Below, piece by piece: positions 2 through 6,258 of a DNA stretch of 64,000 nt. The notes beneath the pieces are model-generated. The model was given only the letters and a program-made list of their open reading frames with translations, was not told the origin of the DNA and did not search any database. A program made the position numbers and the translations under genes. The stretch is taken from assembly GCA_963764715.1 (NCBI GenBank), contig CAVXTP010000014.1, positions 96,001 through 160,000 of the forward strand, read 5' to 3'. The stretch comes from an uncultured Acidobacteriota bacterium. GTDB taxonomy: Bacteria > Acidobacteriota > Thermoanaerobaculia > UBA5066 > Gp7-AA6. The first letter of the stretch is position 1. Each line of letters opens with the position of its first letter.

Positions 2-139
2 CGCCGCATCCCGGCCGAGGAGATCGGCGAGACGCTCGCCCTCTACGAGACCCTCCTCGCCGAGGCGCGCAAGGACGACCTCATGGCCGCCGACGTCCGG
101 GGCGAGATGAGCGGCACCGCGCCGGAGGAACCGCGATGA
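2..139 (+). CDS. hypC: HypC/HupF hydrogenase chaperone, 3' end only (truncated by window edge)
   Basis: Frame 2 reads RRIPAEEIGETLALYETLL...*, like a HypC C-terminal helix; its TGA overlaps the hypD ATG (ATGA). Confidence 0.65.
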   Translation, partial: RRIPAEEIGETLALYETLLAEARKDDLMAADVRGEMSGTAPEEPR

Positions 140-1281
140 TTCTGCGGGAGCTTTCGGCCGCGGCCCGCGAGGTCAAGTTCCGCGACCCGCAGCTGGCGCG
201 GCGGCTCTCCGCGCAGATCGCCCGTCACACCGCCGAGATCGGGCGTTCCCCCGTCTCGGTGATGCACGTCTGCGGCAGCCACGAGCAGGCGATCGCGAAG
301 TGGGGCCTGCGGGCGACCTTCCCGAAGGACCTCAACGTCATCATGGGGCCCGGCTGTCCCGTCTGCATCACCGACATGCCCGAGGTCGACGAGGGCGTGG
401 CGCTCGCCCGGCAGGGCGTCGTCATCGCCACCTACGGCGACATGGTCAAGGTCCCCGGGACGGTCCAGTCCCTCGCGGACGCCCAGGCCGCGGGCGCCGA
501 GGTGCGCGTCGTCTACAGCGCGGAGCAGGCGGTCGCCCTCGCCCGCGAGACCTCGAAGGAGGTCGTCTTCTTCGCGACCGGCTTCGAGACGACGGCCGTC
601 GCGACCGCGGCGATCGTGCGGGGACCGCTGCCGCCGAACTTCTCCGTGCTCTCCGCCCACAAGTACATCCCCCCGGTGATGGAGATCGTCGCCGAAATGC
701 CCGAGACGCGTGTCGAGGGGTTCCTCGCGGCCGGGCACGCCGCCGCCATCACCGGCTGGGGAATCTTCGAGGCCTTCGTCGAGCGCCACGGGATCCCGGT
801 CGTCGTCGCGGGCTTCGAGCCGCTCGACATCCTCGCCGGCCTCGCGCGCCTGGTGGAGCTGATCCGCGACCGGACGCCGCGGGTCGTCAACATGTTCCCG
901 CGCTGCGTCACCCGCGCCGGGAACCTGCGCGCGCAGGAAGAGCTCTGGAGCGTGTTCCGTCCCGTCGGCGGGCGCTGGCGGGGCATCGCCCACGTCCCGA
1001 ACGGAAACCTCCGGCTGCGCGACGAATGGGCCCGCGTCGACGCGCGCCGGCGTTTCGCGATCGACCTGACCGGGCTCTGGGACTACGCGCCGCCGACCCT
1101 GGCGGCGAGCTGCATCTGCGGGGACATCATGTCCGGCATCGCGTCCCCGAAGGACTGCTCCCTCTTCGGCCGCGAGTGCGTGCCGGACACGCCCGTCGGC
1201 GCGTGCATGGTCTCGAGCGAAGGGACCTGCAAGATCTGGCACCAGTACGGCGGGATTCCCAACCTCGGAGAAGCGCTGTGA
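136..1281 (+). CDS. hypD: Hydrogenase maturation protein HypD
   Basis: Motifs MHVCGSHE, GPGCPVC, GFETT and the C-terminal CxCG...C...C...GACMVSSEGTC Fe-S cysteines. Confidence 0.97.
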   Translation: MILRELSAAAREVKFRDPQLARRLSAQIARHTAEIGRSPVSVMHVCGSHEQAIAKWGLRATFPKDLNVIMGPGCPVCITDMPEVDEGVALARQGVVIATYGDMVKVPGTVQSLADAQAAGAEVRVVYSAEQAVALARETSKEVVFFATGFETTAVATAAIVRGPLPPNFSVLSAHKYIPPVMEIVAEMPETRVEGFLAAGHAAAITGWGIFEAFVERHGIPVVVAGFEPLDILAGLARLVELIRDRTPRVVNMFPRCVTRAGNLRAQEELWSVFRPVGGRWRGIAHVPNGNLRLRDEWARVDARRRFAIDLTGLWDYAPPTLAASCICGDIMSGIASPKDCSLFGRECVPDTPVGACMVSSEGTCKIWHQYGGIPNLGEAL

Positions 1282-1283
1282 AG

Positions 1284-2322
1284 ATGCTGACGATTCTCGA
1301 AGAGCGGGTGACCCTCAAGCAGGGGGCGGGGGGCCGCGCCATGCGGTCCCTGATCGAGGACGTGTTCCTGAAGGAAATGCCGGCGCCGCCCGACGCTCTC
1401 AAGGGGATCGGCGCCGAGGCGATGGACGACGGCGCGGCGCTCTGGCTCGGAGACCGATACCTCGTCGTCACGACCGACTCGCATGTCGTCCATCCCATTT
1501 TCTTCCCCGGAGGCGACATCGGGCGGCTCTCGGTCTCCGGCACCGTCAACGACCTCGCCATGATGGGCGCGACCGAGGTGCTGGCCCTGACCTGCGCCGC
1601 CGTCATCGAGGAGGGCTTCCCGCGCGCCGAGCTCGAGCGCATCCAGGACTCGATCCGCGCGACCTGCCTCGAGGCGGGCGCCGCGATCGTCACGGGCGAC
1701 ACGAAGGTGATGGGCCGCGGCGAGATCGACGGGATCGTGCTCAACACCACGGGCCTCGGCCTGACCGACCGCGTCGTCCCGGACTCGGGGCTCTCGCCCG
1801 GGCGACCGGATCCTCGTCACGGGCACCGTGGGCGACCACGGCCTGGCCATCATGGCCGCCCGCCACGCCCTGGAGCTCGAAGGCGCGCTCGCGTCCGACG
1901 TCGCGCCGATCAACGGGCTCATCCGCGCGGCGCTGTCCGCCGCGGACGGCGCGATCGTCGCCATGAAGGACCCCACGCGCGGAGGGCTCTCCTCCGCCCT
2001 CCACGAGATGGCGGAGAAGAGCCGCGTCGGCATCCTCCTCGAGGAGCCCTCCGTCCCGGTCACCTCCGCCGTCCGCGCCGCGGGCGATCTCCTCGGGATC
2101 GATCCGCTCCACGTCGCCAACGAGGGCAAGGCCGTCCTCGGCGTGCGTCCGGAAATGGCCGAGCGCGTGCTCGCCGCGCTCCGCGCGCATCCCCTCGGGA
2201 GGGACGCCGCCATCGTCGGCACCTGCATCGCCGAGCGCCCCGGCTCGGTCATCCTGGATACGGGCTTCGGGCGGCGGCTCCTCGCCGAGCCCGAGGGCGA
2301 GCCCCTCCCCCGCATATGCTGA
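1284..2322 (+). CDS. hypE: Hydrogenase maturation carbamoyl dehydratase HypE, with one frameshift near 1800
   Basis: GAGGRAM, TTDSHVV, FFPGGDIG, GTVNDLAM and GDTKV lie in one frame; DPTRGG, ANEGK and terminal LPRIC lie in another; there is an extra base in cccgggcgacc at ~1800. Confidence 0.92.
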
Positions 2323-3065
2323 CGCCCCGCGTCCGCGTCGCCGTCCTCTGCTCCCGGCGCTGCCCGGGGCTCGAGAATCTCCTCGAGGGCCACCGCCGAC
2401 GCGAGTGGGACCTCGTCGGCTGCCTCGTTTCCGGCGACGAGCTTGCGGAGCGGCGGGAGCTCGAGGCCGCGCGCGTCCCCGTGCGGTGGCACTCGATCCG
2501 CGCCTTCTACGCCGGCCGGCCGCTCTCCGACCTCGCGCGGCGGCGCGAATACGACCGTGGAATCGTCGAGCGCCTCGACGCCTGGCGGCCGGAACTCGTG
2601 CTCCTCTCGAGCTATCTCTATCGGTTGACGGAGCCGATGCTCGAGGCCTTCCCCGGCCGGATCGTCAACGTCCACGGCAGCGACCTCGCGCTCACGGGAC
2701 GCGACGGGCGCCCGGTCTACCCGGGGTTGACGGCCGTGCGCGACGCGATCCGGGCGGGCGAGCCCGAGACGCGGGCGACCGCCCACGTCGTCACCGAACG
2801 CCTGGACGAGGGCCCGATCCTCCTTCGTTCGCGGCCCTTCCCGGTCGCGCCGCTCGTCGCGGACCTGCGGCGGCGCGGGCTCGCCCACGCCGTCAACGCC
2901 TACGCCTTCGCGCACCAGGAGTGGATGCTCGCGACCGCCTGGGGACCTCTGCTGACGGACGCGATCGCGTTGATGACGGGGCGGGTCGAGCGCGGCCGCG
3001 CCCGGTTCGAGATCGGACCGGCGGACCGTCGCGCGCCGGCCGCCGCCGCGGGGGCCCCGCGATGA
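2316..3065 (+). CDS. N10-formyl-THF-dependent formyltransferase family protein (PurN-like; candidate HypX N-terminal module)
   Basis: IVNVHGSD, YPGLTAVRDAI, TAHVVTERLDEGPI formyltransferase motifs; start overlaps the hypE stop. Confidence 0.85.
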   Translation: MLTPRVRVAVLCSRRCPGLENLLEGHRRREWDLVGCLVSGDELAERRELEAARVPVRWHSIRAFYAGRPLSDLARRREYDRGIVERLDAWRPELVLLSSYLYRLTEPMLEAFPGRIVNVHGSDLALTGRDGRPVYPGLTAVRDAIRAGEPETRATAHVVTERLDEGPILLRSRPFPVAPLVADLRRRGLAHAVNAYAFAHQEWMLATAWGPLLTDAIALMTGRVERGRARFEIGPADRRAPAAAAGAPR

Positions 3066-3895
3066 CGCACATCCGGGTGGACCGCGACGGCGCCGTCGCC
3101 TTCCTGACCATCGACCGGCCCGAGCGGTTCAACTCGCTCGACGTCGAGACGGCGCGTGACTTTCGCAAGGCCGGCCTCGCGCTCGCCCGGGACCCGGCCG
3201 TCCGGGCGGTCGTCCTCTCCGGCATCCCGGGCGCCTTCTGCAGCGGCGCGGACCTGAAGTACATCCGGTCGGGCGGAAAGCGGGAGGACCTCGGCTACCT
3301 GCAAGGCGCGCGGCCGGAGCAGACCGGCTACGGAGAGATCTTCAAGCAGATCCTGGAGTACATCCACAGCACGATCTCCGAGATCAAGCGCGCGCCCAAG
3401 CCCTTCGTCGCGGCGGTGGACGGGGTCGCCGCGGCCGGCGGCTTCGGGATCGCCATGGCCTGTGACCTCGTCTACGCCTCCGACCGGTCGACCTTCGAGT
3501 GGGCGTACGGAAAGACCGGGCTGACGGGAGCGGAGAGCTCGACCTTCTTCCTGCCGCGGCTCCTGGGTCTTCGCCGCGCGATGGAGCTCGTGCTTCTCAA
3601 CCCGCGCCTCGACGCCGCGCGGGCCCTCGAGTACGGACTGATCAATGGCGTTTTCCCGGCCGTGACCTTCGACGCCGAAGTCCGCGCGATCGCCCGGCGC
3701 CTCGCCGAGGGCCCCACCGAGGCGCTCGGCATCGCCAAGAGCCTGGTCCAGCAGGCGGCCGGAGTGGACCGCCTCGATCACCACCTCGACCGCGAGCTCG
3801 AGCAGCTCGCGCGGATCGCCGACGGGGCGGATTTCGCGGAGGGCCTCGAGGGCTTCTTCGCCCGCCGGCCCGCGCGCTTCGGCGGCGGGGGCTGA
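3062..3895 (+). CDS. Enoyl-CoA hydratase/isomerase (crotonase) family protein (candidate HypX C-terminal module)
   Basis: LTIDRPERFNSL, AFCSGADL, KPFVAAVDGVAAAGGFGIAMACD; ATGA overlap with the upstream gene. Confidence 0.9.
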   Translation: MTHIRVDRDGAVAFLTIDRPERFNSLDVETARDFRKAGLALARDPAVRAVVLSGIPGAFCSGADLKYIRSGGKREDLGYLQGARPEQTGYGEIFKQILEYIHSTISEIKRAPKPFVAAVDGVAAAGGFGIAMACDLVYASDRSTFEWAYGKTGLTGAESSTFFLPRLLGLRRAMELVLLNPRLDAARALEYGLINGVFPAVTFDAEVRAIARRLAEGPTEALGIAKSLVQQAAGVDRLDHHLDRELEQLARIADGADFAEGLEGFFARRPARFGGGG

Positions 3896-3900
3896 GCCGC

Positions 3901-4248
3901 GTGCACGAGTACTCGATCGTCCAGGCGCTCGTCGAGCGGGTCGAGGCCGAGGCCGCTCAGCGGGGCGCGGCGTCCGTCCACCGCCTCCACGTCCGGATCG
4001 GCGAGGCGTCGGGCGTCGAGATCGATCTGCTCAAGACGGCCTACGGCGTCTTTCGCGAGCGCACGATCTGCGAGACGGCGGATCTCTCGATCGTCCCGGT
4101 CCCCGCGCGATGGGAGTGCCCCCGCTGCCACGGAGACATCCCGCGGGGATCGATTCTTCGCTGCGCGGAGTGCGCGGTCCCCGCTCGCCTCGCGGCCGGA
4201 GACGAGATCTTCCTGGACCGAATCGAGATGGAGGTGGCGAGTGTGTGA
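3901..4248 (+). CDS. hypA: Hydrogenase nickel metallochaperone HypA
   Basis: GTG start, N-terminal MHEYSI, two CxxC (CPRC, CAEC), GDEIFLDRIE. Confidence 0.95.
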   Translation: MHEYSIVQALVERVEAEAAQRGAASVHRLHVRIGEASGVEIDLLKTAYGVFRERTICETADLSIVPVPARWECPRCHGDIPRGSILRCAECAVPARLAAGDEIFLDRIEMEVASV

Positions 4249-4960
4249 GACCCGCGACCGCGGCGACCTCGAGTCCGTACCCGTCGAAGTGCGCGATCGG
4301 ATCCTCTCCGGCAACGACCGGACCGCCCGCCACAACCGCGAGCACTTCGCCTCGCGGGGGCTGCTGGCGATCAACCTGATGGGCTCGCCCGGCGCAGGGA
4401 AGACCGCCGTCCTCGAAGCCACCGCCCGGGCCGTGCAGGGGCGCCTGCGGCTCGGCGCGCTCGCCGGCGATCTCGAGACCGACCGCGACGCGCAGCGGCT
4501 GCTGCGGGCCGGCATCCCCTCGGTCGCGATCACCACGGGCTCGGCCTGCCACCTCGACGCCGAGCTCGTCCACCGCGCACTGCACGGTTTCCCCGTCGAC
4601 GACCTCGACATGCTCTTCATCGAGAACGTCGGCAACCTGGTCTGCCCCGCCGTTTACGACCTCGGGCAGGCCGCCAGCGTCGTCGCGCTGTCGGTGACCG
4701 AGGGCGAGGACAAGCCCGTGAAGTATCCGGTCATGTTCCGCAAGGCCGACCTCGTCCTGGTCACGAAGACGGACCTGCTGCCGCACCTGCCCGAGGTGAG
4801 CCTCGCGGCGATCGAGGACGCGCTGTCGCGCGTCATGCCCTCGCCCCGCCTCATCCCGTTCTCGGCGCGGACGGGCGCCGGCGTCGACGCCTGGCTCGAC
4901 TGGCTGGAGGAACGGCGCCTGAACGCCGTCCTCGCGCTCGAATCCCGGGTGCGGGCGTGA
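4241..4960 (+). CDS. hypB: Hydrogenase nickel incorporation GTPase HypB
   Basis: GSPGAGKT, CHLDA, ENVGNLVCPA, EGEDKPVKYP, TKTD. Confidence 0.97.
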   Translation: MCETRDRGDLESVPVEVRDRILSGNDRTARHNREHFASRGLLAINLMGSPGAGKTAVLEATARAVQGRLRLGALAGDLETDRDAQRLLRAGIPSVAITTGSACHLDAELVHRALHGFPVDDLDMLFIENVGNLVCPAVYDLGQAASVVALSVTEGEDKPVKYPVMFRKADLVLVTKTDLLPHLPEVSLAAIEDALSRVMPSPRLIPFSARTGAGVDAWLDWLEERRLNAVLALESRVRA

Positions 4961-5604
4961 ACGGCCTGTTCGCGGCCCTGGCCCTCGGAGCCCTGACGGT
5001 CGGAAGCCTGCATACGCTGGCGCCGGACCACTGGGTCCCGTTCGCGGCGCTGGCGCGCGCGCGCGGCTGGTCGGCGGGACGGACGCTGCGCGTGACGCTC
5101 GCCTGCGGCTTCGGCCACGTCACGGTGTCGGCCCTGCTCGGCGGGCTGGGCCTTCTCTTCGGCATGGGGATCATCGAGCGCTTCGGCCGGCGGATGGAGG
5201 CTGCCGCGGGCGTGCTCCTGGTGGGATTCGGCGTGGCGTACGCGATCTGGGGGCTTCGCCGGGCGGCCGGGCGAAAGCTCCACGGCCATTCCCATGCCCA
5301 CTACGACCACATCCACGACTCGGGCGGCATGACGGCCTGGACGCTCTTCGTTCTCTTCTCCGCCGATCCGTGCGTGGCGGTGATCCCCCTCCTCTTCGCG
5401 GCGGCGCCCCTGGGGGCGGCCGCGGCGGCCGGCATCGTCCTCGTCTACGAGATCTCGACCCTCGCGACCATGGTCGCCCTGGTCCTGCCGGCGCGGGCCG
5501 GCGCCTCCAGGCTGCGCGCCCCGTGGCTCGACCGTTACGGGGACGCCGTGGCGGGCGCCCTGATCGCGGCCATCGGTCTCGCCGTCGGGGCCCTCGGCAT
5601 CTGA
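4957..5604 (+). CDS. Nickel/cobalt transporter-like membrane protein (NiCoT/UreH/RcnA-related)
   Basis: HTLAPDHW motif, several hydrophobic helices, His-rich loop HGHSHAHYDHIH; last gene of the hyp operon. Confidence 0.7.
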   Translation: MNGLFAALALGALTVGSLHTLAPDHWVPFAALARARGWSAGRTLRVTLACGFGHVTVSALLGGLGLLFGMGIIERFGRRMEAAAGVLLVGFGVAYAIWGLRRAAGRKLHGHSHAHYDHIHDSGGMTAWTLFVLFSADPCVAVIPLLFAAAPLGAAAAAGIVLVYEISTLATMVALVLPARAGASRLRAPWLDRYGDAVAGALIAAIGLAVGALGI

Positions 5605-5703
5605 AGCCCCCCCGGACCCCCCGGCGCAGCGGATGATGCGTTTGCACCATGCGCGCGCCCGGCGCGCCTGTCTACCCTCGAGTTGAACGCACGGAGGTGG
5701 GTG

Positions 5704-6258
5704 ATGACACTTCTGAATCTCTTTCTGATCGTCCTGGCCGTCTCCCTGATTCCGGTGATTTTCGTCTCCGTCCGCGCCTACCGGCGTTACCGGGGCGCAC
5801 GGGTGGTCACCTGTCCCGAGACGAAGCAGACGGTCGCCGTGACGATCGACCGGGGCCATGCCGCGGCCACGACCCTCGCCGGCGAGCCGGAGCTGCGCCT
5901 CGAATCCTGCACGCGCTGGCCCGAACGGCAGCACTGCAACCAGGCGTGCATCTCCCAGATCGAGAGCTCGCCCGACGGCTGCCTCGTGCGCAACATCCTC
6001 ACCCACTGGTACGAGGGAGCCTCCTGCGCCCTCTGCGGAAACAAGATCGAGATTCACTGGGGCGACAACAGGCCGGCGATCCTGGGTCCGGACAACAAGT
6101 CGCTCGAATGGGACGAGATCCGGCCCGAAAAGCTGCCGGAGATCCTGGCGACGCACAAGCGGGTCTGCTGGAGCTGCCACGTCGCGAACACGTTTCACGA
6201 CCAGTACCCGGACCTGGTGACCGAGCGCAAGGCCGCGCCCGAGCGCCGCGTCTCCTAG
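5704..6258 (+). CDS. Membrane-anchored Cys-rich hypothetical protein
   Basis: GGAGG RBS upstream; N-terminal TM helix; CPET, CxxWP, CNQAC, CALC and CWSCH motifs. Confidence 0.75.
   Translation: MTLLNLFLIVLAVSLIPVIFVSVRAYRRYRGARVVTCPETKQTVAVTIDRGHAAATTLAGEPELRLESCTRWPERQHCNQACISQIESSPDGCLVRNILTHWYEGASCALCGNKIEIHWGDNRPAILGPDNKSLEWDEIRPEKLPEILATHKRVCWSCHVANTFHDQYPDLVTERKAAPERRVS

Follow-up and report, generated by a model that had tools for sequence, protein, structure and literature searches.

A separate formyltransferase and crotonase in the hyp operon of an uncultured Acidobacteriota bacterium: a possible HypX-like route to the carbon monoxide ligand of [NiFe] hydrogenase

The origin of the carbon monoxide (CO) ligand in [NiFe] hydrogenases is settled solely for HypX-bearing aerobes. 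In the portion of Muraki et al. 2019 (PMC6802093) on which we draw, HypX is a monomer that assembles with HypC and HypD into a 1:1:1 complex, its transferase triad consists of His74, Asp80 and Asp109, Tyr416 and Glu426 are the decarbonylation candidates of the Aquifex aeolicus protein, and Tyr439 and Glu449 mutants of Cupriavidus necator show a HypX-minus phenotype. The same portion gives the hydrolase domain of 10-formyl-tetrahydrofolate (10-formyl-THF) dehydrogenase as a precedent, the formyl group being handed to a 4'-phosphopantetheine thiol (PMC6802093). A 2025 review of cofactor biosynthesis, in the portion used here, presents HypX solely as a Pseudomonadota protein with two domains, regards the CO source and the enzymes involved as the chief unsolved problem, and mentions formyl-coenzyme A (formyl-CoA) as a candidate precursor (PMC12134894). 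Here we describe two genes from the hyp operon of an uncultured Acidobacteriota bacterium, encoding a stand-alone formyltransferase (FT) and a stand-alone crotonase-fold protein (ECH). They are found in a 64,000-nucleotide (nt) stretch (hereafter the window; C14:96001-160000) of a 4.36 Mb genome with 26 contigs and 96.8% completeness. By the source names of close ECH homologues, the organism falls within Thermoanaerobaculia. In the literature covered, which excludes supplements and some subscription papers, we found no account of a stand-alone crotonase or formyltransferase linked to hyp genes.

FT and ECH are genuine separate hyp-operon members of this aerobically respiring, H2-oxidising bacterium, and such a system is widespread in uncultured soil bacteria. 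By analogy with HypX, we lean modestly towards the view that both proteins form a non-orthologous, unfused HypX-like route leading from formyl-THF over formyl-CoA to CO. Gene structure, hyp linkage, residue conservation and the alignment with the HypX catalytic residues were computed here, while the substrates, the release of CO and its hand-over to HypCD are inferred from HypX chemistry. The features concerned are the following (aa, amino acids):

2316..3065, + strand: FT (P0001), stand-alone PurN-like N10-formyl-THF-type formyltransferase, 249 aa (Pfam Formyl_trans_N, 1.5e-20)
3062..3895, + strand: ECH (P0002), crotonase-fold protein, 277 aa (Pfam ECH_1, 8.6e-47)
3062..3065, + strand: start/stop overlap of FT and ECH, ATGA (translational coupling)

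As the original prediction had it, two coupled open reading frames (ORFs) stand between hypE and hypA. The ATG of ECH (3062-3064) overlaps the TGA of FT (3063-3065), with both genes in different frames, and the ATG of FT at 2316 overlaps the end of hypE (PRIC and the stop codon at 2320-2322). A frameshifted FT-ECH fusion is a fair worry, since hypE is frameshifted and COX1 (heme-copper oxidase subunit I) is split in the same assembly. One extra base near position 1796 (between 1790 and 1800 of the window) puts the AIRS and AIRS_C halves of hypE in different frames; the gene has a surplus of 1 nt when aligned with two relatives, and the base at 1796/1797 is missing in related contigs from three of four soil runs. 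It is probably an assembly error and not a pseudogene. COX1 was recovered at C24:50059-51481 as two adjoining pieces. The ECH frame is also open upstream as far as 2405. Several relatives (G013, G016 and G034) combine few contigs with 57-78% completeness and have matches to ECH and FT that are broken across frames, a pattern by which indel-rich long-read assemblies are recognised in this group.

Nevertheless, many loci show the same boundary. In all 46 of the FT+ECH loci examined, FT ends in a stop codon of its own, and the junction is an RTGA overlap in 36 of them, a spacing of -1 to +89 nt in 6, with the start undetermined in 4. Of the 10 ECH-bearing genomes other than our own in a set of 41 relatives, 9 carry FT immediately ahead of ECH and in a different frame. 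Short-read contigs, three in number and each from another study, span position 3062 with in-frame differences of 3 nt or none, and thus cross the junction without any frame-changing indel. The sequencing runs identified each contain no more than 0.24 of the sampled words, and no RNA run was listed among them. We did not find a credible fused FT-ECH form: the six longer ECH-matching proteins all contain Arg/Pro-rich stretches in the wrong frame, which we read as probable miscalls from error-prone assemblies, and the fused length (about 550 aa) occurs in none of the best 150 FT representatives. Neither half is HypX-like in sequence. The own stops, the RTGA overlaps, the bridging contigs and the lack of a fused homologue exclude a frameshifted fusion, so that one fused HypX gene split by the assembly is, in our estimate, extremely improbable. 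The boundary is genuine and no assembly artefact, which bears out the two-gene layout that had been claimed.

Relationship of the two proteins to HypX and other families

ECH covers positions 3-249 of the 251 of the ECH_1 profile, which places it in the crotonase superfamily. The segment AYGKTGLTGAESST (residues 148-161, nt 3503-3544) contains Tyr149 (nt 3506-3508) and Glu158 (nt 3533-3535) and belongs to a nearly invariant motif, FEWAYxKTGLTGAESST, in which all 87 ECH sequences retain Tyr149, Glu158, Glu146 and Trp147. At the positions of the hydratase glutamates, MAFFT places Gly129 and Tyr149, where 6 and 7, respectively, of the 8 paralogues of the same genome have Glu; we take these positions to be Glu144 and Glu164 of rat enoyl-CoA hydratase. 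ECH therefore lacks the two catalytic glutamates of an enoyl-CoA hydratase proper, as had been read from the sequence before. Neither Tyr at the first position of the conserved pair nor Glu at the second was found in any of the 8 paralogues or of the 3 closest PDB crotonases.

As HypX reference we used HoxX of the C. necator plasmid pHG1 (P0004), which matches the A. aeolicus HypX structures (PDB 6J0P) at 2e-166. In BLASTP, ECH and HoxX share 28% identity over 205 residues (E 4e-10 for the pair), with Tyr149 falling on Tyr439 and Glu158 on Glu449, one gap being placed in between. The same pairing was obtained by hhalign with 15 ECHs against 12 HypX sequences (98.7% probability) and by MAFFT, in agreement with the correspondence proposed by the original prediction. 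ECH is also its own genome's best match to the HypX C-domain (2.6e-7; the next one reaches 2.9e-4). For FT, the BLASTP comparison with HoxX was not significant, and hhalign gave a probability of only 52%, with His120 on His74 and Asp164 on Asp109; this low-confidence profile alignment gave no counterpart for Asp80, and FT has a PurN-type Asn118.

The general plan of HypX recurs here, with a transferase and a crotonase module in the order of FT and ECH and a position in the hyp cluster after hypE; FT and ECH stand next to hypE in a hyp cluster, as hoxX follows hypE in pHG1. The crotonase module of HypX and ECH also both lack the first hydratase Glu. The differences are considerable. HypX is one polypeptide carrying both modules, whereas FT and ECH are two ORFs in different frames and more than half of the loci do without the FT module. 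The N-domain of HypX, according to the portion of PMC6802093 used here, is Fmt/FDH/ArnA-like with a second sub-domain, while FT is of PurN/PurU type (Asn-x-His...Asp) with about 250 aa. ECH is a full canonical crotonase in which the spacing of Tyr and Glu is shorter by one residue and the C-terminal tail of HypX is missing. HypX was not the closest characterised relative of either protein and, judging from these comparisons, neither of them is a HypX orthologue. The suggestion of a split or ancestral HypX thus finds no support, since ECH is nearer to PaaG-like crotonases and FT to PurN/PurU.

The best sequence and fold matches of ECH are PaaG-type or single-domain hydratases-isomerases (4fzw_C, 2ej5 and 4lk5), which share the full-length ECH_1 architecture. 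A Foldseek search of the PDB with the ECH model retrieved the generic crotonase fold, with template modelling (TM) scores of about 0.7-0.85. These three proteins differ from ECH in carrying Phe at Tyr149 and a catalytic Asp one residue ahead of the Glu158 position. Compared with PaaG-type crotonases, ECH has an insertion of approximately 14-19 residues around 68-106, is always in hyp clusters and has no paa or beta-oxidation neighbours. A plasmid search by tblastn with ECH recovered one generic hydratase of 39% identity, and no plasmid-borne or cultured orthologue was found in it.

The catalytic motifs of FT are intact, as claimed earlier: NVH is located at nt 2667-2675 and LDEGP at nt 2802-2816, with His120 kept in 67, Asn118 in 64 and Asp164 in 66 of 67 sequences. 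FT shares with PurN/PurU the Formyl_trans_N fold, Asn118-x-His120 and Asp164, and its best PDB match (8.6e-18) is of this type; HypX is not among its 22 PDB matches at E<=1e-3. It differs from them in sub-cut-off scores, in a C-terminal extension with the family-specific segment AYAxAHxEWM..WG, in its hyp linkage and in the existence of a separate true purN in the genome. With 66.8 bits against a cut-off of 150.1 for the PurN equivalog TIGR00639, FT falls outside PurN, and a bona fide purN is present at C9:92459-93025 (236 bits). The hydrolase domain of 10-formyl-THF dehydrogenase, also a Formyl_trans_N enzyme, transfers formyl to a pantetheine thiol, as would FT in the route proposed below, a parallel by analogy only; it belongs to another sub-family, and its acceptor is the arm of a carrier protein and not free CoA. 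A short FT variant occurs in 9 of the 36 FT-bearing loci (L062, L069, L072, L073, L075, L079, L082, L088 and L103), in which approximately profile positions 28-77 are missing and the N-terminal sub-domain is partly deleted.

Current annotation does not distinguish these proteins. No NCBIfam model reaches its cut-off on either protein, the best matches being generic ECH and PurN models, and neither is singled out by any NCBIfam or Pfam family. ECH homologues are annotated in their sources as 'PaaG isomerase' or 'enoyl-CoA hydratase-related', so the expected miscalling is indeed observed.

Distribution and linkage to hyp genes

A search of 185,579 species genomes gave 442 ECH relatives, of which the best 80 loci (68-97% identity) were studied. 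Hyp genes are present in 80 of these 80 loci, with hypE upstream in 78, and they cover at least 8 named phyla; membership of the hyp operon, as originally predicted, is therefore well founded. The pair is not obligatory in these clusters, as FT is missing from 44 of the 80 loci. By phylum as named on the records, the 80 loci are distributed as follows:

Acidobacteriota: 35 with FT, 18 without
Gemmatimonadota: 1 with FT, 4 without
Myxococcota: 0 with FT, 10 without
'delta proteobacterium' records: 0 with FT, 4 without
Binatota: 0 with FT, 3 without
Rokubacteria: 0 with FT, 2 without
Methylomirabilota: 0 with FT, 1 without
Deferrimicrobiota: 0 with FT, 1 without
'Nitrosotalea' bin: 0 with FT, 1 without

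The last of these, L056, is a record titled Nitrosotalea sp., where a bacterial-type hyp cluster and ECH are found although the bin carries the label of an ammonia-oxidising archaeon. The ECH hardly differs from the one in a Myxococcaceae bin (L063), and a binning error is probable.

In a phylum sample of 401 genomes, including the unpublished G064 (HypD present, with no match to ECH, FT or HypX), ECH was found in 11, and it is present in 11 of 41 relatives. It forms a discrete orthologous group, as all matches at E<=1e-60 in the 401 genomes are in fact at E<=1e-104. The 10 loci other than our own are all in hyp clusters; FT accompanies ECH in 8 of them, and four have FT followed by ECH between hypD and hypE. 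Orthologues of FT (at least 293 bits, the next match having 89.5 bits) were likewise found in 11 of the 401 genomes, 10 of which also carry ECH, and FT adjoins ECH in nine. In one genome (G096), ECH is in the main hyp cluster, while a different contig carries FT behind a hypC paralogue. In another (G121), FT is found between hypF and hypB, and a divergent FT-like copy (28% identity) follows a hypC paralogue. Since both are linked to hyp genes, both FT and ECH are to be regarded as hyp genes, ECH being the constant part and FT a frequent yet separable partner.

Canonical HypX was found neither in the genome under study nor in five ECH-only genomes examined, and none of the 16 ECH-bearing genomes searched contains it. 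Among the 401 phylum genomes, 2 carry HypX, neither of them with ECH; HypD is present in 192, of which 11 have ECH and 2 have HypX.

Some loci outside this pattern were also noted. In L132 (7573-8711) and L134 (6806-7748), an FT-family gene lies only a few bases behind a hypC paralogue, outside the main hyp cluster. A neighbouring gene of about 1200 aa resembles pyruvate:ferredoxin oxidoreductase, judging from its first residues only, and Pfam recognises GNAT/ADP-forming acyl-CoA ligase, CBS and DUF6335 proteins as further neighbours in L132 only. In L076, about 2 kb of unidentified DNA (4001-6001) stand where the near-identical relative L072 carries FT, and a soil contig from run X1 runs from the end of hypE into the beginning of ECH (position 2302 to 3069) through 26 other letters, without FT. 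Both look like a recent loss or replacement of FT.

Proposed route and alternative explanations

In the route that we favour, the PurN-like FT would move the formyl group from N10-formyl-THF onto the thiol of CoA. Formyl-CoA would then be bound in the oxyanion hole of ECH and broken down to CO and CoA by means of the invariant Tyr149/Glu158 pair, and CO would pass to the iron on HypCD. ECH would be the core component and FT an accessory tying it to the one-carbon (C1) pool, while in ECH-only hosts formyl-CoA would come from general metabolism instead. FT may contact the HypC scaffold directly, as suggested by the copies beside hypC. COX1 was found in our genome and also in all 10 further ECH-bearing genomes that were tested, which fits hydrogenase maturation in air, with the restriction that this count has no base-rate control.

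Several observations weigh against this route. FT is present in only 36 of the best 80 ECH loci (tblastn and the FT profile agree), and no FT orthologue was found genome-wide in 5 of 5 ECH-only genomes, only matches at the PurN/PurU level (E 1e-7 to 1e-11). The ECH tree (87 rows, 41 with FT) needs at least 14 changes of FT state, at least 7 of them forced by well-supported branches, compared with a mean of 29 for shuffled labels. Conversely, G121 has hyp-linked FT copies and no ECH orthologue found with this query. In sequence, ECH is matched by PaaG-like crotonases and 2ej5 at 1e-36 (single sequence) to 1e-49 (profile), HypX is missing from the top 60 of about 200 PDB sequence matches to ECH, and it does not occur at Foldseek ranks 1-49 in the PDB for the ECH model. 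Since ECH groups with ordinary single-domain crotonases in sequence and fold, the shared Tyr/Glu could be a convergence or coincidence, and the pair was compared against a small background of 8 paralogues and 3 PDB chains. The AlphaFold2 model of ECH has a mean predicted local distance difference test (pLDDT) score of 69.4, and with residues 150-161, which include Glu158 and begin one residue past Tyr149, below 50 it is not usable for the geometry of the active site. Finally, 179 of the 192 HypD-bearing phylum genomes have neither ECH nor HypX. The lack of overlap between ECH and HypX, a prediction of functional equivalence, carries little weight and is too weak to count, since the base rate of HypX is only 2 in 401.

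Alternatively, FT and ECH could be hydrogenase-maturation accessories with a role other than the decarbonylation of formyl-CoA: ECH might act on another acyl-CoA, and FT might formylate a Hyp protein (e.g., a thiol or amine of HypC) or be a deformylase supplying formate. Such roles would suit two genes that are strictly linked to hyp genes and yet separable, ECH being alone in 44 of the best 80 loci and FT occurring away from any ECH, either immediately behind a hypC paralogue or flanked by hypF and hypB. They would also suit the resemblance of FT to PurU deformylases as well as to PurN, and that of ECH to PaaG-type isomerases, its nearest relatives. We nevertheless consider this explanation rather unlikely, as the invariant Tyr and Glu fall exactly on the two residues that HypX function needs, the HypX step is the only known maturation step that pairs these two folds, and 36 of 46 loci show translational coupling of the pair. 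A housekeeping purN and an enoyl-CoA hydratase of fatty-acid or phenylacetate metabolism, brought into the operon by chance, are what the source annotations and the generic top NCBIfam models would suggest. The conserved hyp context contradicts this, with 80 of 80 fetched relatives in hyp clusters of at least eight named phyla. Moreover, the NCBIfam scores are far under the cut-offs and the true purN is on contig C9, ECH lacks the hydratase glutamates, and FT orthologues are almost confined to ECH-bearing genomes (10 of 11). We hold a chance association of this kind to be very improbable.

Returning to the HypX-like route, a broader form of it can be proposed tentatively, at somewhat less than even chances. 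ECH would be a stand-alone acyl-CoA (formyl-CoA) decarbonylase with an origin independent of HypX, serving as CO-ligand synthase in a large group of soil H2 oxidisers that are nearly all uncultured; FT would be a mobile add-on with many gains and losses, linking ECH to the folate C1 pool, and may work directly with HypC. If so, the named phyla concerned would include Acidobacteriota, Myxococcota, Gemmatimonadota, Binatota and Rokubacteria/Methylomirabilota, and the chemistry of HypX would have been re-invented convergently from other members of the same families, with a natural separation of its two half-reactions.

Should the HypX-like route be true, aerobic CO-ligand synthesis would reach far beyond the known HypX hosts, and the transfer and decarbonylation steps would be open to study on separate proteins. 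The crotonase-only form would raise the possibility that metabolic formyl-CoA feeds cofactor synthesis. In practical terms, the pair would offer an annotation marker for genes now filed as PaaG or purN, and a small two-gene option for tool kits expressing O2-tolerant hydrogenases in other hosts.

Surrounding genes

The remaining features of the operon within the window are:

136..1281, + strand: hypD (Pfam HypD, 1.5e-122)
1284..2322, + strand: hypE in two frames, AIRS half from 1284 to about 1796 and AIRS_C half at 1828-2322, ending in PRIC and a stop
3901..4248, + strand: hypA with a GTG start (Pfam HypA, 5.5e-25)
4241..4960, + strand: hypB-like GTPase (Pfam cobW/HypB/UreG, 4.6e-17)
4957..5604, + strand: conserved membrane protein of 215 aa with a His-rich loop, HGHSHAHYDHIHD (no Pfam match)

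The His-rich membrane protein is encoded directly after hypB or ECH in many of the 80 loci; as a guess, it could be a nickel permease. Just upstream of the window, the same contig contains the small and large subunits of a [NiFe] hydrogenase, a b-type cytochrome, the HyaD protease, a c-type cytochrome, hypF and hypC. The closest matches of the large subunit are 3myr and 4c3o, both membrane-bound uptake enzymes, and the cluster-encoded hydrogenase is, by these similarities, predicted to be of the uptake type, with cytochrome b and cytochrome c. In its small subunit (C14:88846-90216; also L025 4847-6217), the N-terminal cluster-binding motif is QDCCGNTES, aligned by BLASTP with LECTCCSES of HoxK, a position that we take to be that of the proximal cluster; the cysteine pattern is thus unlike that of HoxK.

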